IMG/VR virus record: IMGVR_UViG_3300009031_000221
Coordinates: 128,001-192,000 of that record
Reading direction: 5' to 3' (one strand)
DNA from: a virus
Taxonomy: Duplodnaviria > Caudoviricetes
DNA length: 64,000 nucleotides
Both the position numbers and the translations under genes were made by a program. The number at the start of each line of letters is the position of its first letter. Position 1 is the stretch's first letter. Shown piece by piece: positions 1,428-23,524 of the stretch. The notes under the pieces were generated by a model that saw nothing but the letters and a program-made list of their open reading frames with translations, was not told the DNA's origin and did no database searches.

Positions 1428-2648
1428 CTACTTCTTCTTCCGGATGCCGCGACCGGGCTTCTTTGCCGGGGGGGACTCAAGATGATTGTCTACCGCCTTC
1501 ATATGGCGCTTCAACTTCGCGACAACGGTATCCAGGTCATCCAGGTCAGTATCGTCCGGATGACGCCATATTGCCGAAAGATCATCGTCCAGTTTCTCTC
1601 CCTTCGCATTCGCCTTTCCGAACAACTCTTCCAACAGGGCATCCCCCGTCTTCACGTTATTACCCCAACCTTCAATGGCAGGGTTGTCAACACGGCTGAC
1701 AACGGTCTCCTCCTGAAACACATTCCCTGCCTCCGGAATGACGGACATACGAGGGTATTTGCTATTAGCAGGAGTGGTATTCGGGATCAAGCACAAGCCA
1801 TGCTTGGACTTGTCCGCAATACCGGAAGCCGGGGTCACATATGCCCATACATACTTACCGGAACGAACCAATTCCTGTGCCCCCGCCTTATCCGTTGCCG
1901 GTGCGTAATTCATGGGCCAATTGAAATCCTTGCCTTGCGCCGTGGAAAACTCGGAAGGCTGAGAAAGGTATGCGTCCCCCCTTGACATTCCATTCGGCAT
2001 ACTAGAACCGCCATTGAAAATCTTGGACACATCAGGTGCCGATTCCCACATGCCCGCAAGGGTTTCGAGTTCCAACGTACGATACTTCGCGGGCATGCTA
2101 CGCCGGTCTTTTCCGTCACTGTTGAGATCCCCAAAGGATTCCCACTTATCGTGACGCAGGGATTGCATTACAGCAAAGAACATTGCCCGTTGCGAAAGAT
2201 CCCCGTAAACCAGGATATCGTATCCAGCATCCCACAAATGCAGGTTCACTACATTCCCGTCATTCAACATGTACATGGACAGAACGGATCCCAACTCCTT
2301 GGTCTGATCCGTAATCGATTTGTCCATATCCAATGCGGCACGTAACCGATTCTTAAATGCTTCGACTTCAATTTCAATTTCAATTGGGGTGCAAACCGCT
2401 ACTTCGGATTGGGGTTCATCAACCTCAGGCGGAGAATCTTCCACAACCGGTGCTTGAACCGGGACGATTGCCGCAATCGTTTGCTTGATGACTAGTGCGT
2501 CCTCATGGAACGTATCTCTTGAGAATTGTCCGTTATTCCACCAGGCTACTTCAACTTGGTGACGACTTTGAATCAGGTCTGTTACAGTCACAACAGGAAT
2601 GGGGGTACCCGCAAGGTATACCAAATCACCAATCTTGAACTTGCTCAT
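1428..2648 (-). CDS. Hypothetical protein with N-terminal YodC/DUF2158-like SH3 module and internal copy of scaffold C-terminal peptide
   Basis: N-terminus FKIGDLVYL...VTV...VEVAWW...F; internal WESAPDVSKIFNG (2010..2048). Confidence 0.7.
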   Translation of the reverse strand: MSKFKIGDLVYLAGTPIPVVTVTDLIQSRHQVEVAWWNNGQFSRDTFHEDALVIKQTIAAIVPVQAPVVEDSPPEVDEPQSEVAVCTPIEIEIEVEAFKNRLRAALDMDKSITDQTKELGSVLSMYMLNDGNVVNLHLWDAGYDILVYGDLSQRAMFFAVMQSLRHDKWESFGDLNSDGKDRRSMPAKYRTLELETLAGMWESAPDVSKIFNGGSSMPNGMSRGDAYLSQPSEFSTAQGKDFNWPMNYAPATDKAGAQELVRSGKYVWAYVTPASGIADKSKHGLCLIPNTTPANSKYPRMSVIPEAGNVFQEETVVSRVDNPAIEGWGNNVKTGDALLEELFGKANAKGEKLDDDLSAIWRHPDDTDLDDLDTVVAKLKRHMKAVDNHLESPPAKKPGRGIRKKK

Positions 2649-3786: not shown

Positions 3787-4368
3787 ATGAAACCATCGGA
3801 AAGAATAGCTCTCATCGACATGGACGGCACGATTGCGGATCTCGATGGTCAGATGCAACAAGACCTGGAAAAGATGCGTTCCCCTGGGGAACCCCCTTTC
3901 GTTCCTGGCCCACAAGATGACCCGCCGCATATCGAAGCACGCAAGAATGCCATCAAACGGCAACCCGGTTGGTGGCGGCACTTGCCCACCCTCAGGGACG
4001 GATTTCGCATCGTCCATGCTCTACAGGAAGCAGGGTTCAGCCTGATGATCCTGACCAAAGGCCCTTACAAGACCACATCGGCTTGGACAGAGAAAGTGGA
4101 TTGGTGTCGAGAACACATTCCCGATGCACAAGTCACCATTGGCGAGGACAAAGGCCTTGTCTACGGGGCGGTGCTCGTCGATGATTGGCCTTTGTATATC
4201 CAAGGTTGGCTTGCACATCGTCCACGCGGGTTAGTGATCATGCCGGATCAACCGTGGAATAAAGATTTCCATCATCCTAATGTGTTTCGTTATCGAGGCC
4301 CGGAAGATGATTTGGGCATGGAACAACGAATTCAGGATCGGGTTGATTTAATGCGGATTCATTCGTAG
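3787..4368 (+). CDS. HAD-family 5'(3')-deoxyribonucleotidase (NT5C-like)
   Basis: IDMDGTIAD motif I, WTEKVDW, LVDD motif IV; start moved to ATG 3787 (AAGG upstream). Confidence 0.85.
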   Translation: MKPSERIALIDMDGTIADLDGQMQQDLEKMRSPGEPPFVPGPQDDPPHIEARKNAIKRQPGWWRHLPTLRDGFRIVHALQEAGFSLMILTKGPYKTTSAWTEKVDWCREHIPDAQVTIGEDKGLVYGAVLVDDWPLYIQGWLAHRPRGLVIMPDQPWNKDFHHPNVFRYRGPEDDLGMEQRIQDRVDLMRIHS

Positions 4369-5092
4369 ATTTTCGCCGTGCCCAAATGTTTTGCATAGAT
4401 ACCCTTCGTTTTTCCCGAGTTTCGGCACTGACGGGTCTACCCCGCACTGCATCCCCCATCTTAGCTCGACTTTCAGCACTGAAAACTTGATGTGATCGTG
4501 CCTCCCGAATTTTGGCACGAGTTTCTTGGGATGCATTAATCCCCAAATGGGATTTTGCTATCTTAGCCTTGGTTTCATCCGTGTGTTTCTTTTCCCGAAA
4601 CTTGGCTTTAGTTTCTTCCGTGTGTGTCCTGCCGGTTTGGCCCTTTGACATATTCACACGGGCTTCAGGGCTAGCTTTCGTCCCAAGTCGGGCTTCCCGA
4701 ATTCTTGCCCTGGTTTCAAGGGTCCGGATTTTGCCTTTGTTAGACGCACTGATTTTGGCACGGGTGGCATCAGAAACAATCCTGCAACCCGCCACAACAG
4801 GATCCAGGTTGTATCCCTTAGCACGTTCATCCGACATCATGTGTCGAATGTGGTGTTCTTCCCACATCGACAATTGTTCCACGGAACACAGTTGGAGGAC
4901 CCTAAATTCAAAAGCACCTTCACCGTATTTGTCCCATGACCGCTGTAGGTAGGAATTGTCATGCACCCCACGACGCAAATTCGATCGATGGTTGTACCAC
5001 CTGCCCCGAAATCCCTTTGTGGATCCTACATAGCACTTACCATTGATTGTGTTGAAAATGCCATAAACACCTGACGCATGTGCATATTCCAT
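4277..5092 (-). mobile_element. Free-standing GIY-YIG homing endonuclease with NUMOD3-like repeats
   Basis: SGVYGIFNTINGKCYVGST...RW..H..NL; repeated HTEETKAK/SAETREK DNA-binding motifs. Confidence 0.9.
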
Positions 5093-8104: not shown

Positions 8105-8120
8105 ATAAGGAAGCTAACGA
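8105..8120 (-). promoter_or_regulatory. Putative late promoter
   Basis: TCGTTA-gcttcc-TTAT. Confidence 0.55.
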
Positions 8121-9061
8121 GCCTCTACAATTGACGGGCGCCCCACCTTCCGTTCATGCTTGATATCCAATTTGACCATCCACCGATCTATCGTAGCTTG
8201 TCCGACACCCAATCGTTCAGCCATTGTACGGATAGGCATGTTATCCGCCGCCATTTTCGCCAATACCTCAGGCGTTACTTTCTGCCGAATATCATAATGA
8301 GGCCCTTGGAACCCAAAAGGCCCAAGCTTGTATGCCATGCACTCGGGGACATGCGGCTTGATCAATTCGATGAATCTATCCGCCGTGTCCTCCCGTTCCA
8401 TATGAAACTGTCCAGTGTTCCTGACCTTCAATTGCCAACGAGGTTTCAAACCGAACTTCTCAAATATCGACCACGCTACTTCCCTACTAGCATCATCAGC
8501 CCCAAATGTAATCCCAGGCCACCACCCGGCATAACCGTCATCCAAATACCATATAGCCAATGCGAACTCGTCAACCTTGTCCACAATCTGGGGAACCAAC
8601 CGTTTCCAACCCTTGTGTTGGTCGACATAGAACATTTCTTGCCATTCATTTAGGGAATCATGAGCACAAGTGAACATGCCCACTTGAGTGAATCCGCGTT
8701 GATCTGGGACATCCACCACGGGATTCGCCCAAGGCCCCCACAAGGCAGCCTTCCATTCCAGATAGGGGCGTTGTGCCCCGCAATGTCTTTCTGAGTAATG
8801 AGTGGCATTGACTCGACGTACTAGCCTGCCGTCCCCTAACATAGAACCGACCAATAATGATTGGAGCCGCCCTTCTATCGGAGTGACCTCATTCCTTGCC
8901 CATCGGGGCAATGTTTCAATGCCATAACGCTTCCGCCATGACATCACCCGTTTGGGTGACCCCTCTAATACACGGGATGCGATTTCGGCATCCGTCAATT
9001 TGAGGTCGTGTACCAAGTGCCGAAGTTCAATTGCTGTCATGGGACATGGAATCGTTTTCAT
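8114..9061 (-). mobile_element. Free-standing LAGLIDADG homing endonuclease with flanking HTH segments
   Basis: LLVGSMLGDG and LAIWYLDDG motifs; HTH-like ends (LTDAEIA..., IRTMAERLGVGQATIDRW). Confidence 0.85.
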
Positions 9062-9068
9062 AGGAATC

Positions 9069-9097
9069 AGTGTATTCGATAATTCCCCGAAATGCAA
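9069..9097 (-). promoter_or_regulatory. Sigma70-like promoter, leaderless geometry
   Basis: TTGCAT-N17-TACACT, then 7 nt to ATG 9061. Confidence 0.55.
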
Positions 9098-10778: not shown

Positions 10779-10906
10779 TTGATGCCTCCTATTGGCTGCT
10801 CCCTGTTTACAGGGGGCGGAGGATGTCCTCCGATTAAGCCCCCGCTGTCACCATGACTTTGGGGTTGTCTGGGGTTTTCACCCCGTTCAGTACTAATAGG
10901 GGTCTC

Positions 10907-10922
10907 ATAAGCAAACAACCGA
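10907..10922 (-). promoter_or_regulatory. Putative late promoter for decoration-MCP operon
   Basis: TCGGTT-gtttgc-TTAT. Confidence 0.6.
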
Positions 10923-10942
10923 AACAAAATGCCCAAAAACGA

Positions 10943-10974
10943 ACGACCCGGATAAGTTTCCTTATCCGGGTCGT
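10943..10974 (-). terminator. Hairpin/terminator after scaffold gene
   Basis: 14-bp perfect stem ACGACCCGGATAAG with GAAA loop, followed by TTCGTTTTT on the - strand. Confidence 0.75.
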
Positions 10975-10988
10975 CGTTTAGGTTCACA

Positions 10989-11018
10989 CCTATTTAGGGG
11001 AGTTTACCCCTAAATAGG
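10989..11018 (-). other. Second hairpin immediately after scaffold stop
   Basis: 12-bp perfect stem CCTATTTAGGGG/CCCCTAAATAGG with 6-nt loop. Confidence 0.6.
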
Positions 11019-11021
11019 GCC

Positions 11022-12776
11022 TTAGCCGTTGAAAACCTTGGAGACATCAGGTGCCGATTCCCACAAACGGGAGAGTTCGTCAACTTCACCGCCAGCCGAA
11101 GCCGTACGGGTCAATCCACCCACAGTGCGAACGCCGGTCGAAGCCTTGCGGGGCTGCGGACGCTGCGATGCAAGGCGCATGGCCTTCTTTGCAGCAGGGG
11201 AAGCATCCTCGTCTTCGCCTTCATCCTCATCCTCAGACTTCTTGGCCTTCTTGGATGCAACAGGAGCTTCCTCCTCTTCATCCTCATCCTCAGCCTCATC
11301 TTCCTCGGCGCCATCATCCTCATCCTCGTCCTCAGACTTCTTGGCCTTCTTGGATGCAACAGGAGCTTCCTCCTCTTCATCCTCATCCTCAGCCTTAGCG
11401 GACTTGCCGCCGAAGATCGATGCCAACAGCGCTTCGTCATCGTCGCCGAGAACGTCATCGCTACCGTCCGCGAGGCCCATCGGGTCTCCCGTCATGCCGA
11501 ACATACCGGCATCATCACCGCAAGCCTTCTTGCCTGCAGTAGGAGCATCCTCCTCATCTTCTTCATCCTCGGCCTCTGCCTTCTTCGCCTTCTTTCCGCC
11601 CTTCTTAGCTGCAACGGGAGCTTCCTCCTCATCTTCTTCAGCCTCAGCCTTCTTGGACGCAACAGGAGCTTCCTCTTCAGGTTCCGCCTTCTTGGCCTTG
11701 AGTGCCTTGAGCTTGGCAGCCTTCATGAAGGTAGCTTCCATCTCGGAAAGCATTGCAGCCTCAGCGGGATCAAGTCCAGCTACGGTTGTAACAGCCGCTA
11801 CGACAGGCTCAGGGGACAACGCATCAATAACTTCTTCCGAAGCCAGGATACCATCACGGTCAGTATCCAGGGCAGCGAACAGATCCTGCGATCCAACCCA
11901 CTCCGCCTGCATTACAAATCCGTCATTGTCCGTATCCATCGAAGCGAAGAACTTGCGTGCAGCCTTGCGAGCGGCAGCTTCCTTCTTTTCCTCGGGCTTG
12001 TCTTCGGGCTTGACTTCGGGTTCATCCTCGCCTTCGGCCTTCTTGGCTTCCTTGCGGGCTGCATCCTCATCCTTGGCCTTGGGGGCCAACGTCGGACCCT
12101 TGGGGTCATTCTGGTCAGCCTTCTTGAGGCTTTGTACCTTCTCGGTCAAAGCCGAAAGGGCACCCAGAACCTCGTCCATTTCAGACTTCTTTCCAGCATC
12201 AGGGGCTTCCTCAGCCAACATCATGTCCAGATCGTCATCATCCATATCGCCAAAGTCATTGGCAGGACCACCGAAATCATCAAAGTCGGGTTCGCCAAAA
12301 TCAGCCTGAGGAGCCATTTCCTCAGCCAAGAATCCTCCACCGATACGCTCCAATGTTGCATTGATGCGGGAATCCGACCAATCCATCATATCGAGCGCTT
12401 GATTTTCAACTGTATCGGATGAAGCCTTCTTGCCAAGCATGGCGCGAGCAATGCGAATGCACTTCTGTGCCTTGCGCTCCACGGCTGCACGCAAACTACG
12501 TGCTTCCTTGGGGACGCGGGGCTGCTCCTTGTGGGCAGGGTGATCCTGATCTTCCGTATCGTAGCCAGGAATGGCCGGGGGGTTACCCTGGGCATACGGG
12601 GGCTTCCGAACGTCCTCAGCCCATGCTGAAGGATCGCCTTTCTTGTAGGCCTCATAGGCAGGATCTGCCTGATGGGCGGGGTGGTCTTGATCCTCAGTAC
12701 CGTAACCGGGGATCTGGGGGGCGGCAGACGCCGAACGTCCTGCCGCCCACGTCATGCGATTCCTATTGGTGCTCAT
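11022..12776 (-). CDS. Capsid scaffolding protein (acidic, low complexity, EF-hand pair)
   Basis: Between protease and decoration/MCP; TGATG overlap with the protease stop and AGGAG SD; E/D/K/A-rich; ends WESAPDVSKVFNG. Confidence 0.75.
   Translation of the reverse strand: MSTNRNRMTWAAGRSASAAPQIPGYGTEDQDHPAHQADPAYEAYKKGDPSAWAEDVRKPPYAQGNPPAIPGYDTEDQDHPAHKEQPRVPKEARSLRAAVERKAQKCIRIARAMLGKKASSDTVENQALDMMDWSDSRINATLERIGGGFLAEEMAPQADFGEPDFDDFGGPANDFGDMDDDDLDMMLAEEAPDAGKKSEMDEVLGALSALTEKVQSLKKADQNDPKGPTLAPKAKDEDAARKEAKKAEGEDEPEVKPEDKPEEKKEAAARKAARKFFASMDTDNDGFVMQAEWVGSQDLFAALDTDRDGILASEEVIDALSPEPVVAAVTTVAGLDPAEAAMLSEMEATFMKAAKLKALKAKKAEPEEEAPVASKKAEAEEDEEEAPVAAKKGGKKAKKAEAEDEEDEEDAPTAGKKACGDDAGMFGMTGDPMGLADGSDDVLGDDDEALLASIFGGKSAKAEDEDEEEEAPVASKKAKKSEDEDEDDGAEEDEAEDEDEEEEAPVASKKAKKSEDEDEGEDEDASPAAKKAMRLASQRPQPRKASTGVRTVGGLTRTASAGGEVDELSRLWESAPDVSKVFNG
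11231..11395. repeat. 66-bp perfect direct repeat in scaffold gene
   Basis: 11231..11296 equals 11330..11395 (AEDEDEEEEAPVASKKAKKSE), offset 99 nt. Confidence 0.9.
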
Positions 12777-14299
12777 CACTTTTCTCCTCGCTGTGGCGAC
12801 TGCCTGGTATTTCCAGCCTTTCCCGAAGTACATCCCCGTGAAAGAAGTTTGCCAAGACGAATTAACGTCTTAGCCTCATCCATGTTGGGTTCGCGTCCCA
12901 TTGCCAGGCGGCAGGCATGAATGAAGGAATTAGCAGAACCATACCTATTGGAACCACCGACCTGCAGTGCAGTGCGATAAATTCCAACGGGGACAGTAAT
13001 GCCGATTTGCTGATTGAACACCGCCACGCGGTTGATCAGGTCAGCGTCAGATGATGCAGTACGGACAATATCGTCCAATCCTGCCTGATATGCTTTGCGT
13101 GCCATTGAGGCTTGCTTATTGAGCGTCTCGTTGGTGCTGCTATTTCCAGGGGCTGGCGGGGCCAAATCCTTCTGGAGACGATCCTGCACTCGAGTAATAA
13201 GATGGTTGTAAACCGCGTCCTCTACATCCTTGAATGGAGTGGGCGGCGCTACAGGTGCTGCCGGGGCTACTGGAGCCGGGGCCTCAGGGGCTCCGTCCTC
13301 ATCTTCCCATCCAGCAAAGAAATCATCGGATGCATCCACATTGATTCTGCCCGTACGTGCCGGGGGTCCAACACGGGATACTATCACCGCATCAACAGGG
13401 GTAGATGCCGCCTTGAGGCGATCATCCTTCGTCCACTGAGGAGGAGGAGTTGACAAAACCTTCTTAGCCTTCTTCGCAGTCTCAGGGCTAAACTCTAGAA
13501 CGTTCCGAAGCACTGCCCCAGTAAATGCAGGCGTGCCAACCCAGGATGCTTCAATAAACTGTACGCCGCCTGTTGGTCCTAATGACTCATGGCCACACAG
13601 TTCCGCAATACGATGCTTGTTGCCATTCTCGTCAAAGAACGTGTTACCCTTGGCATATTTGATGTGAGGGCACATCTCCGTTTCATCAGCAGCCCAATGT
13701 CCACACTTGGTGCAAATAGTCCCGTCAACAGTGCAGCCCATTGATAGGGTGCCCATTTTTCCGGACTCAATAGCCTTGACCAAATCTTCATGCTTGCGAT
13801 CCGTGGCAATCAGGATATCCACATAGATGGAATCCCCAATGTCACGTGCCACGGCATCAATGATTCTGCCCTTGGACAATTCTTCTACTTGGACGTGTTC
13901 AACGAAATTATGCCCGCCAACGAATGTTTGGTAGGAAGACATCAATACAGGGCGATTCCAACAATCCATGTTGTTATTGATGAATTGATCACTCGCAGGC
14001 TTAACACGGAAATCGCTAAACTTCCGATTAACCCGGAACCCATCCTCCATTACGGAGCCCGTTTTGATTCCCTGGGGTGAATAGGTATCTACCGACGCAA
14101 TAATTGTGGCATGCGTTAGGAGATAATTATTCGGATTGAATGTCTCACCGAAAAATTCAGATGCCCGATCTACAAGGGATCCGCTTAGATCCCCTTCAAC
14201 CTTGGCGTCTTTGCTTCCAGCTGTCCGGATGTTACTCCATTCAGTTTGGGAAACGTGTGGGCGAACTACCTGAGCACAGGCGTACTTCATGAATGCCAT
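12776..14299 (-). CDS. Prohead (capsid maturation) serine protease with Cys/His-rich insertion
   Basis: HK97-type protease motifs FVEHV, TLSMGC and FIEASWVGTPAF; CTKCGH...CPH...CGH insertion. Confidence 0.75.
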   Translation of the reverse strand: MAFMKYACAQVVRPHVSQTEWSNIRTAGSKDAKVEGDLSGSLVDRASEFFGETFNPNNYLLTHATIIASVDTYSPQGIKTGSVMEDGFRVNRKFSDFRVKPASDQFINNNMDCWNRPVLMSSYQTFVGGHNFVEHVQVEELSKGRIIDAVARDIGDSIYVDILIATDRKHEDLVKAIESGKMGTLSMGCTVDGTICTKCGHWAADETEMCPHIKYAKGNTFFDENGNKHRIAELCGHESLGPTGGVQFIEASWVGTPAFTGAVLRNVLEFSPETAKKAKKVLSTPPPQWTKDDRLKAASTPVDAVIVSRVGPPARTGRINVDASDDFFAGWEDEDGAPEAPAPVAPAAPVAPPTPFKDVEDAVYNHLITRVQDRLQKDLAPPAPGNSSTNETLNKQASMARKAYQAGLDDIVRTASSDADLINRVAVFNQQIGITVPVGIYRTALQVGGSNRYGSANSFIHACRLAMGREPNMDEAKTLIRLGKLLSRGCTSGKAGNTRQSPQRGEK

Positions 14300-15970: not shown

Positions 15971-18900
15971 TCACCTCTGTTGTCTCATCCAGGTCATTCG
16001 TACTCGACCTTGATATTGTGAGGTTTTACCTGGAGAAGACCCTGAGGAATCTGCACCCCCCATTATCGCCCCCATACTCTCCATAAACTCATCTGGAGTC
16101 ATGTCCTTCATGCGCTCCCGAGTTTCTGGCTTTGCGTGCTCAAGAAAGTCCCTCATCAACTCGGCGGGGGATTTATCCTTGATTTTGTCTTTGTTGGCAG
16201 CGTGGAATTCCTCAATAGCGGATTTGTCTGCCGGGTGTACCTTCGGTATGGCAGGAGGCTCATCATCTTCAGGTGCTTCCTCAGGTTCTGCCTTCACGTA
16301 CTTCTTATCCAGTTCCCCAACATCCCCGGTTTCAATAACACGCCGCATCTGTACTACCGATGGGTCATCATCCGGTGGATCCCAACCTTCTGCTTTCATC
16401 GCTTCCATCTGGGCTTTCAGATATGCTACACGGGCTATTGGCCCCTTTGTATCCTTGCACGCCTGCATAGCGGCAACGTCACTTCCTGAATCCCTTAGGC
16501 ACTTCGTCATCTCATCGGCAGCCTTGATATATTCAGGGGAACTAGATGCCTTGTCATGAACACGGGCGTTCAATGCTTCCATCTCTTTGGGGCTAATCTT
16601 CTTGCGAGCCTTGGCACCGGATTCGGGCTTCGCTTCTTCACCCTTGTCCTCACCCTCTCCCCCTTCCGATATATCAAATCCGGCTTGTAGGGACGCATGA
16701 CTGGTAGTCATATTGTCAACAGCCATGTCGTTGAGGAAATTCTTGAGGACTTCCTTTGCTTCCTTGGACACGTCCCCACTATTGAGTGCCCGAAACATCG
16801 GATCTTCCTTGGCGAACCCGTGTACAACAGCGATGTCCTTATCCTTCATTGAATCAAGGGCTTTCCTAATGCGTTCTCGTGAATCTGGGCTATAAAAGTT
16901 GTCAGGACTGCCCAACAATAAATCGGCTGAACCCTTGTCTATCATAGCCTTGGCTAATGCTACGTACTGCCGGGAAGGGCTAGGCTGTAGGGGTTTCCCA
17001 TCAACCATAATGGGTTTATCCCCATTGGCAATTGCCGCTAGATTCAATCCACTTAGGACACTTTTCAATTCCGAATGTAGAGGGGAACCCGGTTTGGCCT
17101 TGGCTATCTCCGCTACAACATGCTGTGTTGCCGCATCCCGTTCCTTTGAATCTATATCACCACTCATGTATTGCTTGTATGCAGTGGTAGCACGGGCATT
17201 CAACTGATCTGGACTCTTCGGTTCATTATTCGCATCCTGTCCCCCAATGTTCACGGGACCAGAACGAACTACGGGAGGCTTCTTATCTTTGGGGGCCTTT
17301 TCCGCCGGCGTTGCTGGAGGCGTAGCCGCAGGAGGCGTTGGCGCCGCTGGCGCTGCCGCAGGAGGCGTTGGCGCTGCCGCAGGAGGCGTTGGCGCCGCTG
17401 GCGCTGCTGCAGGCGGGGCGGGAACCTCAGGGGCGGGAGTTGCCGCCGGTGCTTCTGTAGATCCTGGCGCCTTCGCAAGATCCCGGATGCCGGAAAGGGA
17501 ATCGTTGCGAAGTTTTTCAGCCGCATCCATCATAGTTTGTGATTCAGCCTTCGCCTTGTCACTCTTAGAGTTTTCCATTGCCTTAGATGCGAGCCGCAAA
17601 TCCGTAGTAGATTTGTTGAAATCCTTTACGGCTTTATCCAATGCGGGCTTATGCTTAGCGAGTTCGGGATCGGACTCATACATAGCATCAAGATCCTTCA
17701 TGATGCCCCGTATATTCTTGCTATTCCCTTCCTCTAAAGCCTTTGCCAAATTGTCAATATGCTCCCCATGCTTCTTAGCAGGATCCTCTGTGGGTGCCTT
17801 CGCACCGCCCTCGCCTTTGTCCTCGCCGGTACCCTCAGCAGTCTCACCCTTGGCATAAGCCTCTGCCTGTTCCTTTTCCTCAAATGTCTCCCGGTCACCA
17901 TCGGGGTTCTTAGCAGCCCAACCTTTATCGGTTTGCCACACTTCCCCAGGTTTATGTTCAGGTTCATCAGTCTTGGGCGTATCAGGGCCTTCTGGACCCT
18001 TTGGACCTTCTGGCCCCTTTGGACCTGTGGGTCCAGGAGGTGCTGGGGGCACTGCAGACCCTTTACTCAACACCCACTGATATGCTACACGCTTGTAATT
18101 CAAAGATAGATCAGGATCATCCTCAGCCCCACCATCAGCTACGGATGGTTTATCCGGGTCTACTCGGTGATTCCGAAGATCCTGACGTGGGGGCTTCGAC
18201 TTTGGGGCGGGACGGATATTGGCATTCGCCGCATCATCCTCCCTCTCCGCATGCGTCTTGGTAGCTACACGTGCCATCCCCGTTGCAGGATCCAGTGATT
18301 CTAAGCACTGATCACATACACCCGTCACAGACAATCGATCCGAATGCAACCACTTAGGGCATCGGCACTGAATCACATTCCCACAGTAATGACATTCCAA
18401 TCGGAAATGGCCAATACCCGACGCATGAATAGCCTTCAGCGTATGCCCTTTACGAATGAATTGAGCCAACAAGGCCCTGTTAATATCAAATGCGGCTTTG
18501 GAGAAACCCTTCTTTTCAAAGGACTCCGATACATTTCCATCCTTGAGGTATTCATCCTCAAGCCCCGGCACAAGATATTGGCTTCGCAACGTGGCAGATT
18601 CGTGTCCTACAGCTTCAGCCGTTTCATCCAATGCCGTCTTAAACTCACCCTTGAGTTTCTTTTCACGTTCCTTCTTATCGGTTGGGAGCTTTCCCCCCTT
18701 GGAACGGACGGCCTTGAGGCGTTCCTGCATTTCCGTATTAGCGTGAAACCCTCGAATGTCCTTGGCGGATATATCGAAAGGCTTCAGGTAAACGTTCACA
18801 TCCTCCGCAGTGATACGGCAATCCTCACCCTCACATAGTGGGGAGTCCTCGCCCTTACCCTTCGTGGCATCCTTCAAGGCTTTGACTAATACTGCGTCTT

Positions 18901-21367
18901 TCACTTCCTTAACATGATCCACACCCGACTTGCCAACATACTTAACGGTTGCCTTGCCCCCAGAAAACGTAACATGCTTCTTACGCCAACCGGTAACCCC
19001 GAAATGCCCTTCCTTGGCGGATTCATCATTGCCAACACGCTCGAAGGTTTCATCCATCAACCCGACAGCCAATGCCGTGTACCGAATCTTTTCATCATCA
19101 GACTTCAGGTCTTTGCGATACTGCGCCCGTAGTTTATCGATATGCCCTCGGAGCTTTTCAATTTGCCCCGCCTTGTCCTTGTTACGATCCGCAATCTGAC
19201 GGTCACTATACTCATAGACGATCATATCTTCGCCGTCTTTGGTCTTGACCTTCTTCTTGTCCTGGTATTTGGCAGCTACTCGACGTGCAGCCATCAATCG
19301 AATGTATTCCGGAGTGTGCCCCACCAAACCTTCCTTACCATCAGCTAATAGCTCAATATCCCCCGCAATTGGGGGCTTTGGGGGTGCCTTGTCTTCCCGA
19401 ATCTTGAATAGGTTGACAACTTGTTTCTTTCCGGTAGGAGTTTCGATTAGAACTGTTGGGTCGCCCTTCTCGCTAACCCCGAAGTCCCTGATTAGCCCAT
19501 GCTTATTCTTGTATTTTCCGAACAGAACAGGATCCCCTTCGTTGACATTGAATACTTTTGCGATATGCACAGGCTGTTCCATGTATCGATTCGCAACTCG
19601 AACTTCTATGGACAATGCAGTCTTCCCCCTACGAGCCATCTCCACATGAATTCGGTTTTCCCACCTTGAAGCGGAAGTAGCCAGTACGGGGTCATCAAGC
19701 AATACCGTCCGTGCGGTATCCATTAATGTACGAATCTCCGCACCCTTGAGTTCGTATTTACGAATCTGTCCGGGCATATCGATAACTTTGCCCGGTTGCT
19801 CCAGGACATCTACAAATGCCTCGCCCTCTTCAGCACCCATCTGAACCGTGATTTCCCGAACGCGATCCTTCTGGGCGGGTGTCAAGAACCCCAAGCGCCT
19901 GCCCACGGGCATACCCAAATCCATCAAGTCAAACAGGAATGCCAAATCCCCCTTTCGTTCCGCCCAGTTTGCCAATGCCTCACGGAAGGGTTTATCCGAC
20001 TGTGCAATGGACTTGACAACATCCAGCAATCCTAGTTTGTCCATTTCCAACAATGCACGTTTGCCAACCCCTGTTTCATAGAACAAGGTGATGATCATAT
20101 TAGACAAATGCCCGCCAGGAATATTGCGGAGCTTGTCCTTGTTCTTCTTGATGGATGCTTCAACCTCGGGATCGATCTTGAATCCATATTTCAACAGGAA
20201 CTTGATAGCCCGAATCATCCGGCTGGGGTCATCCGAGAATGTCTGGTCGGGGCTAGAAGGGCAACGCATTACCCCTTCCTGAAGATCCTTCAGGCCACAA
20301 CCCGTCAAGTCCAGGATTTCCGCTTTATCCGGCCCATCCGCCAAGTCATGCATTCTCCACAATAGAGTGTTGAATGTGAATTCACGACGAAATGTGTCAT
20401 CCTTGATATTGGCTGGGGCGACTGCATCAGGCTTATAGCCTCCCGCATAGGATTCAGTACGGGCATTTGCAATCTCAATGACCTCACCCGATAGATTCTG
20501 TCCCCCGACTTCCCAATCACCTTTGATGGTGAGGATTGCCACCCCATAGTTATTGGTTGTCAAGTTCGTGTCAGTTGGGATTGCCCGCTGCAACTGCTTG
20601 GCAAACCATTCCGAATCCTTACCCTTTAGTGCTACCGAATCAATGACGACATCGATGTCCTTGATAGGTTCCTTGATGATGAAATTACGTACAGCCCCAC
20701 CAACAACGTAGACATGCTTGGATACGCCCAGCTTTGTAGCCACGTTGGACAGGAACTTCATTAGTTCTACAGATACCTGATGTTGCATGGCGTCTACAAT
20801 ACGGGAGGCCATTCGGGTAGGATTCCCAAATTCCACTACATGAACCTTGGGCAAACCCCATATCTCGATGCCATCGAACGTCCAATCCCCCTGCGGAAGG
20901 ATCCCATCAAATTCGGTTTCCAGGCCGTCTAGGTATGCCAAGGTGACGTGCGGGGAGTAGACCAGGGGAAAGTAGTCATCTACATCAAATCCGGCGCCCA
21001 TGAGGGCATCCCGGAGTTTCCACCGCAATGCAGCCAAGTCATGGCTGTACCGAACTCGCATAATCGCGACTCGCCGTTCCTTGTCGGGTTGTGCAAAATA
21101 GTCTGGCCCATATACATGGGCTTTCACACCACCCCGAATTTCAGCCAATACACGAGATGAAATATCCAGGAATTCGGATTCCCGTTCCTTGGATACGGTG
21201 CCTACATACAGGAATGTTGTATGTGGGACGGATTGATCCTCGGACCCAAGATCAGGAAACTGATCCCCCAATTCTTTGGATAGAGGGATGAAGAACCCTA
21301 CACCTGTGCCGTCACCGGTTTTCTTACCGTCAGACGCACCCGCGTATTTATTCCAAGCTGTGATCAC
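15971..21367 (-). CDS. Multidomain polyprotein: 2H phosphoesterase, CCA/poly(A)-type nucleotidyltransferase, SH3-like domain, DNA topoisomerase IB, Zn finger, Pro/Ala-rich tail
   Basis: 2H motifs PHTT and PHVT. NTase motifs VGGAVRN..DID, DDTFRREFTFN and DDPSRMIRA. Topo IB motifs ERVGN, GKSG, KDIRGFHAN, GH and SQYL. Zn finger CHYC..C.C...CDQC. Confidence 0.9.
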   Translation of the reverse strand: MITAWNKYAGASDGKKTGDGTGVGFFIPLSKELGDQFPDLGSEDQSVPHTTFLYVGTVSKERESEFLDISSRVLAEIRGGVKAHVYGPDYFAQPDKERRVAIMRVRYSHDLAALRWKLRDALMGAGFDVDDYFPLVYSPHVTLAYLDGLETEFDGILPQGDWTFDGIEIWGLPKVHVVEFGNPTRMASRIVDAMQHQVSVELMKFLSNVATKLGVSKHVYVVGGAVRNFIIKEPIKDIDVVIDSVALKGKDSEWFAKQLQRAIPTDTNLTTNNYGVAILTIKGDWEVGGQNLSGEVIEIANARTESYAGGYKPDAVAPANIKDDTFRREFTFNTLLWRMHDLADGPDKAEILDLTGCGLKDLQEGVMRCPSSPDQTFSDDPSRMIRAIKFLLKYGFKIDPEVEASIKKNKDKLRNIPGGHLSNMIITLFYETGVGKRALLEMDKLGLLDVVKSIAQSDKPFREALANWAERKGDLAFLFDLMDLGMPVGRRLGFLTPAQKDRVREITVQMGAEEGEAFVDVLEQPGKVIDMPGQIRKYELKGAEIRTLMDTARTVLLDDPVLATSASRWENRIHVEMARRGKTALSIEVRVANRYMEQPVHIAKVFNVNEGDPVLFGKYKNKHGLIRDFGVSEKGDPTVLIETPTGKKQVVNLFKIREDKAPPKPPIAGDIELLADGKEGLVGHTPEYIRLMAARRVAAKYQDKKKVKTKDGEDMIVYEYSDRQIADRNKDKAGQIEKLRGHIDKLRAQYRKDLKSDDEKIRYTALAVGLMDETFERVGNDESAKEGHFGVTGWRKKHVTFSGGKATVKYVGKSGVDHVKEVKDAVLVKALKDATKGKGEDSPLCEGEDCRITAEDVNVYLKPFDISAKDIRGFHANTEMQERLKAVRSKGGKLPTDKKEREKKLKGEFKTALDETAEAVGHESATLRSQYLVPGLEDEYLKDGNVSESFEKKGFSKAAFDINRALLAQFIRKGHTLKAIHASGIGHFRLECHYCGNVIQCRCPKWLHSDRLSVTGVCDQCLESLDPATGMARVATKTHAEREDDAANANIRPAPKSKPPRQDLRNHRVDPDKPSVADGGAEDDPDLSLNYKRVAYQWVLSKGSAVPPAPPGPTGPKGPEGPKGPEGPDTPKTDEPEHKPGEVWQTDKGWAAKNPDGDRETFEEKEQAEAYAKGETAEGTGEDKGEGGAKAPTEDPAKKHGEHIDNLAKALEEGNSKNIRGIMKDLDAMYESDPELAKHKPALDKAVKDFNKSTTDLRLASKAMENSKSDKAKAESQTMMDAAEKLRNDSLSGIRDLAKAPGSTEAPAATPAPEVPAPPAAAPAAPTPPAAAPTPPAAAPAAPTPPAATPPATPAEKAPKDKKPPVVRSGPVNIGGQDANNEPKSPDQLNARATTAYKQYMSGDIDSKERDAATQHVVAEIAKAKPGSPLHSELKSVLSGLNLAAIANGDKPIMVDGKPLQPSPSRQYVALAKAMIDKGSADLLLGSPDNFYSPDSRERIRKALDSMKDKDIAVVHGFAKEDPMFRALNSGDVSKEAKEVLKNFLNDMAVDNMTTSHASLQAGFDISEGGEGEDKGEEAKPESGAKARKKISPKEMEALNARVHDKASSSPEYIKAADEMTKCLRDSGSDVAAMQACKDTKGPIARVAYLKAQMEAMKAEGWDPPDDDPSVVQMRRVIETGDVGELDKKYVKAEPEEAPEDDEPPAIPKVHPADKSAIEEFHAANKDKIKDKSPAELMRDFLEHAKPETRERMKDMTPDEFMESMGAIMGGADSSGSSPGKTSQYQGRVRMTWMRQQR
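17325..17405. repeat. Tandem 30/21/30-nt repeats encoding a TPPAA(APA) linker
   Basis: gccgcaggaggcgttggcg(ccgctggcg)ct x3. Confidence 0.85.
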
Positions 21368-21411: not shown

Positions 21412-23106
21412 CTAGAACCGTTCCGTGCCCTCGGCAGGCGGCTTCTTGTACTTCAGGCCCAAGTTCCCCGCGACCTTCTCTGTGATCTCGGTCGATTCAA
21501 CCAGAGCTTCACCAACACGGCTGTATGCCGCACGGACAACTTCATTCATCGAGGAGTCACTCAATGTAAACAAGTCGTTCTTCAACCCTTCGGCTGCCGT
21601 CACAGGATCGATGTTCAGCAGATCCAAAATGACATCGATTGGAATCGAACCCTTCTGGTACAGGCTGAATAGTGCATCATAGGTGTCCGCCGTATCCCGA
21701 AGCGCCAACCGTGTAAACGTCAGCTTCGGAACAATGACCTCAAGGATCCCATCTTCATCTTCTTCAACGAACCCCATGCGAGCGCACATTGGTTTGAAGA
21801 AGTATTCCTCAACTAGATCCTGCAGCATTTCGCGAAGTAGCATAAATCTAGTGTTGATAACCTCGAGGTGAATACGATCGCCGGAGTATGATGATTCACC
21901 GGATAGCAAACTCTCCGTCACACCTAGACCGGCATACAACTGCCTATCCGTCAAGTCATAAACCCATGACCAGTCAGGCAACCGTTGATCCGCACCCATT
22001 TCCTCCCAGTTGACCTGGAAGTTGGTGATGATCGAGTAATCAGGGTCTTGCAATGCAAGGTCAACCTGTTCACGCAAAGCGTCCGTCTGCTCATCAGACA
22101 TGTCCTCAGCATAGATCAATCGATAGGGCGTCATGTGACGCGACGCAATGCTAGTCAAAGACTGGCGAACCTTGTCCCGGAATACCAATGTCCGGAGGCA
22201 TCGCTGAAGGATGGACTTGCCACGCGGCTCATAAGGGCTCCGCTTGCGAGCCATGAAGTGACAGAAACTGCCTGCTTCGGGATCAGTATTCAGTGGGACA
22301 TTCCGCCCTTCAGCTACAGCCTCCACAATTTCAATCGGCATCGAGTTGGCAATACGCTGTGCTTGAGCATCCCCTTGACGGGCGCGCTCAATAATAGCCT
22401 TGGTCTTGGAGTCGGGCACTAGCTCAATGAGCTTCTCGTCCGTGAATGGGAATGACTCAACACGCACTTGCTCAGGGGGCAAGCATCGAATAGCTGTCCA
22501 ACCCTTGTAATTCTGATTGAGCCACTTGATCTCGCGTTCATCTGCATCCTCGAAGGGTTCCCAACGCTCGAGGAATTTCCCGTCAGCTGTGATTTCCCGA
22601 ATGGCTTGTTCCCGTACTTCACGGGGCATATCAGGATTGGTGTCCTCGATGAACAGCGCAACCTCACCAATCAGGTTCCACTCGTGAGTGACTTCCATGA
22701 GGCGACGTAGGAGCCCTACCTTCTTTGCCCACTTGGTGCAGAATCGCATTGACTTCTCAGCCAATTCCCGATTCCGTGCATCAGGCATGCCAACCCGAAC
22801 CTTGGACAACGGAAGCTCTGTGTGCAAGTCAATCGCCTGCCCAACAAAGGGTTCGTAGTCATAGAAGAATCGGTAGTAGTTATGTTGTTCGTCAACAGAC
22901 TGCGGTAGCTCGAGGAAGTCCGTCGATAGTTCAGGTGAGTAGAAATTACCGCCTGAACCAGCCTGGACACCGCCTGCCATCGGGAATGCGACTTTTGCCC
23001 GCATCGCTGTGGTGATGACTTTGCCGGGTTTGCCGACTGAAACACCAGGGCGTTGAGGGACAACCGCTACTTTGACGGTTTCATCAGGATTATTCTTGCG
23101 AGCCAT
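21412..23106 (-). CDS. Portal protein
   Basis: About 565 aa, downstream of terminase; YDYEPFVGQAIDLH, HFMARKRSPYEPRGKSILQRCLRTL. Confidence 0.8.
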   Translation of the reverse strand: MARKNNPDETVKVAVVPQRPGVSVGKPGKVITTAMRAKVAFPMAGGVQAGSGGNFYSPELSTDFLELPQSVDEQHNYYRFFYDYEPFVGQAIDLHTELPLSKVRVGMPDARNRELAEKSMRFCTKWAKKVGLLRRLMEVTHEWNLIGEVALFIEDTNPDMPREVREQAIREITADGKFLERWEPFEDADEREIKWLNQNYKGWTAIRCLPPEQVRVESFPFTDEKLIELVPDSKTKAIIERARQGDAQAQRIANSMPIEIVEAVAEGRNVPLNTDPEAGSFCHFMARKRSPYEPRGKSILQRCLRTLVFRDKVRQSLTSIASRHMTPYRLIYAEDMSDEQTDALREQVDLALQDPDYSIITNFQVNWEEMGADQRLPDWSWVYDLTDRQLYAGLGVTESLLSGESSYSGDRIHLEVINTRFMLLREMLQDLVEEYFFKPMCARMGFVEEDEDGILEVIVPKLTFTRLALRDTADTYDALFSLYQKGSIPIDVILDLLNIDPVTAAEGLKNDLFTLSDSSMNEVVRAAYSRVGEALVESTEITEKVAGNLGLKYKKPPAEGTERF

Positions 23107-23524
23107 AAATGCCTCTTGCTGCAATCAGCTTCTTCTTAGCTTCATCGGCAGTTCGTTTTGCTTCCCGCGATGCACGGAATGCTTTCAATCGATCGGAGTC
23201 CGAATATTCGGAACCCACACGTTCATTCAAAGGAACCACAGGTCTAATAGATGCAATCCTACCTAGGCATTGATCAATGATCCCCTGCGTATCCTTAGCA
23301 CGGCGCAATCCCGATGATTCCGATCCATTACGGCGCCCTTCCGAAGCCATTTTCGAACATATATCCGCAGCGTGGCGAAGGGACTTTTCGGCATCCCGCA
23401 AATGCTTTCGCATTTCGATTTCTGCCAACCGAATCTGGTTCTCGTGTTGTTCCTGCTGCCTAGTCTGTTGATCAGCTTTCGCTTTATCTTGTGCTTCTTG
23501 ACGTGATGTCACTTTGCACCCCAT
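23090..23524 (-). CDS. Hypothetical coiled-coil protein
   Basis: Overlapping ORF between terminase and portal. Confidence 0.55.
   Translation of the reverse strand: MGCKVTSRQEAQDKAKADQQTRQQEQHENQIRLAEIEMRKHLRDAEKSLRHAADICSKMASEGRRNGSESSGLRRAKDTQGIIDQCLGRIASIRPVVPLNERVGSEYSDSDRLKAFRASREAKRTADEAKKKLIAARGIYGSQE

Follow-up and report, generated by a model that had tools for sequence, protein, structure and literature searches.

The window, as we call the whole stretch of 64,000 nucleotides analysed here, is taken from a 536,053-base virus record of groundwater origin and covers its positions 128001-192000; the 536-kb genome has 68 tRNA calls and one tmRNA. Its minus strand carries a head operon which consists, in this order, of the genes for a portal protein and a three-enzyme protein of 1798 aa, two small genes, and the genes for a maturation protease, a 584-aa protein, a probable decoration protein and the major capsid protein (Table 1). 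The reading frame of the 584-aa protein opens with an ATG at 12776 in overlap with the stop codon of the protease gene and is equipped with a GAGGAG ribosome-binding site. The capsid protein shares 88% identity with that of the huge phage LR745208, 49% with that of Tunturi 5 and 39% with gp27 of phage G, with which it aligns end to end, and possesses neither an N-terminal extension nor a delta domain. The probable decoration protein has no sequence match to phage G gp26. The 1798-aa protein (15971-21367, minus strand) combines a 2H phosphoesterase, a CCA/poly(A) nucleotidyltransferase and a topoisomerase IB domain; in LR745208 its slot is occupied by a 508-aa gene whose N-terminal domain, located before the topoisomerase-like part, differs as judged by eye. 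Two free-standing homing endonuclease genes, one of the LAGLIDADG type (8114-9097, minus strand) and one of the GIY-YIG type (4277-5092, minus strand), are found near the capsid gene. Outside the window, the phage tmRNA (G000:C1:225791-226190, minus strand) sits among more than 60 clustered tRNAs and encodes the tag ANDNVEFTSFAAAA, which presumably resembles myxobacterial tags and is taken by us as a host hint only. A separate TTA-anticodon tRNA call is located at position 483473 of the genome.

Table 1. Head genes and features of the 584-aa protein, in coordinates of the window.
Feature	Position	Strand	Remarks
Portal protein	21412..23124	-	phrog_16240; homologous to phage G gp14
Head maturation protease	12776..14299	-	phrog_18299; homologous to phage G gp19 and Tunturi 5 gp331
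Putative capsid scaffolding protein, 584 aa	11022..12776	-	pI 4.4 (acidic), disordered for the most part, with 25 K/R-x-A motifs
Conserved N-terminal region: two Pro/Gly/His repeats (14-83) and three-helix domain (95-145)	12342..12737	-	conserved in the family
K/R-x-A cluster, residues 265-273, start of entering helix	11958..11984	-	putative protease sites
Compact two-EF-hand module, residues 268-320	11817..11975	-	helix, loop, W-x-G turn, helix, loop, helix
EF loop 1 DTDNDGFVMQAE, residues 281-292	11901..11936	-	Met at position 9
Inter-loop linker, 11 residues	11868..11900	-	conserved Trp, Gly, Phe
EF loop 2 DTDRDGILASEE, residues 304-315	11832..11867	-	loop pattern match
Conserved C-terminal helix motif ending WESAPDVSKVF	11025..11087	-	candidate capsid-binding element
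Probable capsid decoration protein, 234 aa	10074..10778	-	position only: slot of phage G gp26
Major capsid protein, 291 aa	9187..10062	-	39% identity to phage G gp27 over residues 1-289

The 584-aa protein is very probably the capsid scaffold, a function which we infer from gene order and composition and not from homology. Its gene lies between those of protease and capsid protein, and its acidic, largely disordered chain ends in a conserved element, as expected of HK97-type phage scaffolding proteins. Counting homologues by means of a scaffold query had yielded the EF-hand pair in about 110 of 120 sequences. Since this number is biased by the query, it was replaced by a set of 80 loci collected by capsid similarity (88-96% identity), which contain 46 distinct full-length scaffold genes including that of LR745208. 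In all 46 loci this gene adjoins the protease gene and holds the scaffold slot within the order protease-X-decoration-capsid, which corroborates the preliminary description insofar as it had placed the EF-hand pair in a scaffold gene. In most loci the decoration gene comes next, at a distance of 130-290 bases. A gap of this size between scaffold and decoration gene is present in almost all relatives; in the present genome it measures 243 bases (10779-11021) and harbours a 15-pair hairpin (10942-10975) as well as further inverted repeats recognised by eye. Bacillus phage G and Tunturiibacter phage Tunturi 5 have head modules of the same gene order with homologous protease and capsid genes and, in the case of phage G, a homologous portal gene. 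Directly downstream of their proteases, in a like slot, acidic proteins are encoded (phage G gp21 and Tunturi 5 gp332), which have no detectable similarity to the 584-aa protein and no EF loops. The scaffolds of lambda, P22 and phi29 are the comparison systems for proteins of this kind. Searches of PHROG, Pfam and BFVD returned no characterised scaffold homologue of the 584-aa protein, for which PHROGs contains no family, and a fold search with its full-length model against viral structures gave nothing meaningful. Scaffolds diverge fast, so that a blank homology search does not exclude a scaffold.

The missing homology to known scaffolds would also suit an internal head protein or a cargo-recruiting protein whose EF-hand pair provides a docking surface for a partner from phage or host. 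Such a function might also explain the reuse of the C-terminal peptide in another reading frame, where it may act as a general docking tag. We nevertheless regard this as improbable in view of the fixed gene order, the acidic and disordered composition, the capsid protein devoid of an N-terminal extension and the acidic proteins in the like slot of phage G and Tunturi 5. A complex prediction for the capsid protein and the C-terminal 55 residues of the scaffold returned a score of 0.00, which we count neither for nor against any reading. The reading frame sharing the C-terminal peptide encodes 406 aa (1428-2648, minus strand); its residues 201-213 are a near-exact copy of the last 13 residues of the scaffold (WESAPDVSKIFNG), and it contains a stretch, LLEELFGK, which resembles the LLASIFGG motif of the scaffold. 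A second reading frame, outside the window (G000:C1:330051-330740, minus strand), weakly matches the N-terminal profile of the scaffold (E 1.6e-5).

The two EF-hand loops of the scaffold are located exactly where they had been reported (11832-11936, residues 281-292 and 304-315), their starts being 23 aa apart, which leaves a linker of 11 residues. Both consist of 12 residues with oxygen ligands at positions 1, 3, 5 and 12, a glycine at position 6 and a hydrophobic residue at position 8, and in the copy of this genome both carry Glu at position 12. As a check with EF-hand profiles, the Pfam models EF-hand_6 (27.1 bits, cut-off 25) and EF-hand_1 (26.3 bits, cut-off 25.4) were exceeded, which supports the assignment, while the pair model EF-hand_7 remained below its cut-off (18.4 vs 30). 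The attribute “canonical” given to the loops in the preliminary description calls for one reservation: loop 2 passes a PROSITE-like EF-hand pattern (our own version), but loop 1 fails it with a non-consensus methionine at position 9. No second EF-hand pair of this kind is present in the other reading frames of the 536-kb genome.

AlphaFold2, supplied with a 50-sequence alignment, predicts the pair with a pLDDT of 87.7 as a succession of a helix, a loop with a strand, a one-turn helix, the W-x-G turn, a helix, a second loop with a strand and a final helix, the first exiting helix thus being truncated to a single turn. The top structural matches of this model are, without exception, EF-hand proteins, at Z values of 7-8 which are modest for so small a domain. 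Judged from its sequence, the module would with high probability bind Ca2+ in vitro. In a full-length AlphaFold2 model, the helices at residues 95-145 and the EF-hand pair at 268-320 are the only confident parts. The protein had been portrayed as otherwise disordered, which is correct for most of its length but not for the conserved N-terminal repeats and C-terminal motif.

Conservation was assessed with 131 homologous modules. Loop 2 is nearly invariant, with Asp in 99%, 100% and 99% of the modules at positions 1, 3 and 5 and either Glu (83%) or Asp (17%) at position 12. In loop 1, the corresponding aspartates are found in 94%, 86% and 89%, and Asp (60%) prevails over Glu (40%) at position 12; Glu at this position in both loops is a feature of 34 of the 131 modules. 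At position 2 of the loops, Thr is the commonest residue. Both loops are intact in 110 modules and loop 2 alone in 20, loop 1 being degraded in 15%. Even where loop 1 has lost aspartates, the Trp following it, Gly6 and the Phe of the linker are kept, which points to the fold as the object of selection; its importance seems to equal that of the first site. An EF loop with Asp at position 12 tends to tolerate Mg2+. Since loop 1 has Asp12 in 60% of the modules and is degraded in 15% with loop 2 intact, a structural or Mg2+-tolerant site explains this pattern no less well than a Ca2+ trigger would. The conserved ligands and a pooled dN/dS of about 0.17 (seven related pairs; a rough figure resting on 42 codons, with several pairs saturated) indicate that the module is under purifying selection.

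These data also bear on the possibility that the pair arose by chance in a protein rich in Asp, or is carried along neutrally. The protein does contain 11.6% Asp and the module is often absent from relatives. Yet, among 20,000 composition shuffles, one loop arose in 0.47% and two loops in none, and clear cellular homologues of the module exist. Shuffles and ligand conservation together refute a chance origin of the loop pair, and the low dN/dS is at odds with neutrality, so that we attach next to no probability to either version.

Among the 46 capsid-selected scaffolds the module is present in 23 and absent from 23. The absence is clean in each of the latter, their N-terminal and C-terminal motifs being kept. 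On a tree of capsid and decoration proteins, from which L088, a locus of an unpublished genome, was omitted and with no claim depending on L088 alone, module presence changes six times, and at least four of these changes are forced by well-supported branches. For instance, L022 and L037 are without the module, yet the tree places them together with L030, which has it, in a clade of carriers. Natural plus/minus sister pairs are thus at hand in L030 versus L022/L037 and in L071 versus L076. In L031, L063 and L071 the module is situated closer to the N-terminus than in the present genome, and this position suggests either shuffling or a second insertion. A compensating EF-hand gene was found neither in the flanks of the EF-less loci nor elsewhere in this genome. 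A link to genome size was considered and rejected, as contigs with the module span 290-536 kb and contigs of 485 and 619 kb are without it; very large heads hence do not require the module. The module is an optional add-on and not a required switch.

This distribution sets limits to what had been proposed for the pair, namely that Ca2+ regulates procapsid assembly, scaffold release or protease access. Conservation of the loops in homologous scaffolds holds where the module is present but does not extend to the half of the relatives lacking it. As half of the close relatives, with capsid proteins 88-96% identical, make their heads without the module, the family as a whole cannot depend on a Ca2+ switch, and regulation by Ca2+ is not supported as a general mechanism.

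In the scaffold family, K/R-x-A occurs 3226 times compared to 1401 expected occurrences (2.3-fold), an excess above that of other spacings of the same residues. It is also enriched in the protease and in a 301-aa protein, whereas capsid and decoration proteins show no such excess. The assemblins of herpesviruses cleave behind x-x-Ala, which makes cleavage at K/R-x-A by the neighbouring protease a reasonable inference. In about 100 of 128 modules, K/R-x-A is found 5-13 residues ahead of loop 1, in or beside the entering helix, and the module is bracketed by such motifs (median distance 9 residues upstream and 35 downstream), with few inside.

Metal-driven folding could accordingly hide a putative cleavage site, and a rise of host Ca2+ might fold the module and thereby alter protease access, scaffold release or the timing of assembly. 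The occurrence of Glu12 in both loops of the present copy and of 34 of 131 modules would be in line with such a sensor. Against it stand the absence of the module from half of the close relatives, the frequent Asp12 or degradation of loop 1 and the short linker, which leaves almost no exiting helix for an opening of the calmodulin type. Moreover, with 25 sites punctuating the whole protein, the adjacency of K/R-x-A to the loops needs no special cause. We therefore consider a Ca2+ sensor unlikely. The same low probability is assigned to the more specific idea that a captured bacterial EF-hand pair serves as a Ca2+ switch which gates cleavage of the scaffold by the protease and couples maturation to host calcium. 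If it were true, a Ca2+ switch on scaffold cleavage would be the first EF-hand-controlled step of phage assembly.

The bracketing by K/R-x-A, with few motifs inside, could also mean that a piece of about 50-80 residues is released by the protease after maturation and either stays behind in the head, where it would buffer metal, or is ejected with the DNA. Other genes of the head region, such as that of the 1798-aa three-enzyme protein, likewise look as if they encoded processed cargo, and T4 retains peptides of its core proteins. Scaffold fragments, however, usually exit the head, and we rate such a fate of the module as rather doubtful.

The reading which we prefer, tentatively and at somewhat less than even probability, is that of an accessory folded knot, loaded with Ca2+ or Mg2+, within a disordered scaffold processed by a protease. 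It is favoured by the optional distribution of the module, the decay-prone loop 1 rich in Asp12 and the conserved hydrophobic core. The protein would be the scaffold, or internal core protein, of a large family of uncultured giant phages with capsids of the phage G/Tunturi 5 type, built from short conserved motifs which are joined by acidic spacers ending in K/R-x-A, where the protease encoded next to it probably cleaves. The element inserted among these motifs would be an EF-hand pair of the compact bacterial type, akin to the EF tail of transaldolases. The pair would bind two divalent ions, loop 2 representing a Ca2+-type site and loop 1 an often Mg2+-tolerant one, and in the host cytoplasm would probably be loaded most of the time; resting free Ca2+ in bacteria is low, which renders its occupancy in vivo uncertain. 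As to its structural role, a small folded, protease-resistant knot may stiffen the acidic, otherwise repulsive scaffold or allow it to self-associate, which would bring about a modest gain in head assembly dependent on host or habitat.

Phage capsids are known to respond to divalent ions. The full-text literature covered by our search, to which most subscription papers do not belong, contains no report on an EF-hand in a phage scaffold or procapsid, in agreement with the preliminary description, whose author knew of none. Nothing relevant was found for Bxz1 and T5. For phage TP-84, whose virions disintegrate in EDTA, a PROSITE EF-hand screen of the structural proteins prompted by this behaviour gave none (PMC5889276). 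The combination of a scaffold with an EF-hand pair thus appears undescribed in the searchable literature, both parts being of known kinds. A metal-binding domain which is genetically separable and resides within the assembly core offers a clean experimental handle. With its 53 residues, the module can also serve as a model of the compact EF-hand pair of bacteria, the transaldolase tail included, which is very widespread but has received little study.

The closest relative of the phage module among known systems is the C-terminal EF tail of PRK12309 (NF008965) transaldolases from Cyanobacteriota, Myxococcota and Pseudomonadota, which shares with it the 23-residue spacing and the EW-x-G...F linker. 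PRK12309 is the best NCBIfam match of the phage protein (E 7e-10, residues 266-320 versus model positions 329-383), and a search with a transaldolase-like phage copy as the query ranked four transaldolases of this type first among 185,579 genomes. The predicted models of phage module and transaldolase tail superimpose with an rmsd of 1.4 Å. Over 46 aa, some phage copies are 65-72% identical to the tail, including its AAGLG end, compared to 39% for the copy of this genome. Spacing and linker are present throughout the phage modules, while the GLG end is kept in about nine copies and eroded here. In a 46-column tree, phage and transaldolase modules are grouped together (SH-aLRT 98), apart from repeat proteins, with the transaldolases nested among the phage modules. 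The tail is optional in the transaldolases as well: of 14 cyanobacterial genomes (L153-L166) with matches above the cut-off, seven match to the end of the model and seven stop near position 330. In the phage, the module lies in the middle of a head protein and without an enzyme domain; no transaldolase gene was found in this phage genome, and our literature search on the function of the transaldolase EF tail returned nothing. From the sequences compared, kinship of the two is likely, and capture of the module by the phage from a host would be the simpler story.

Secreted proteins with multiple EF-hand repeats from Acidobacteriota, Planctomycetota and others (Pfam EF-hand_5/6) possess the same 23-spaced pair with its linker, yet in three to eight or more repeats and often behind an N-terminal hydrophobic leader; the phage protein, by contrast, is cytoplasmic and contains a single pair. 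For 108 of 126 modules, a broad profile of these repeats scored higher than a narrow one made from transaldolases, a comparison biased by the fact that it was the phage profile which had retrieved the secreted repeats. When 1.8 billion proteins were searched by profile, 112 of the best 150 matches contained 23-spaced pairs with an aromatic-x-G...F linker, and many of these were multi-repeat proteins equipped with a leader peptide. The 23-spaced EF-hand pair is a common bacterial unit.

The distance between EF loops is typically about 25 residues, and 12-13 in lanmodulin (PMC10232371). It is this short spacing to which lanmodulin (LanM) owes its rank as the best sequence match in the PDB (E 8e-5). 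Lanmodulin has four hands, Pro at loop position 2 and the 12-13 spacing, in contrast to two hands, no Pro2 and an 11-residue linker in the 584-aa phage protein, which scores 23 bits with the LanM model compared to a cut-off of 135. A lanthanide-binding function modelled on that of lanmodulin was rejected, given that hand number, Pro2 and spacing all disagree. Pairs of the calmodulin type, as in CRACR2a, parvalbumin and the calmodulin lobes, exhibit the same fold (TM 0.77 and Z 8.6 to CRACR2a, 6psd), but separate their loops by about 25 residues and have full F and E helices, where the phage module has its 11-residue linker and an exiting helix of one turn. The phage pair is not calmodulin-like but belongs to the compact bacterial type.
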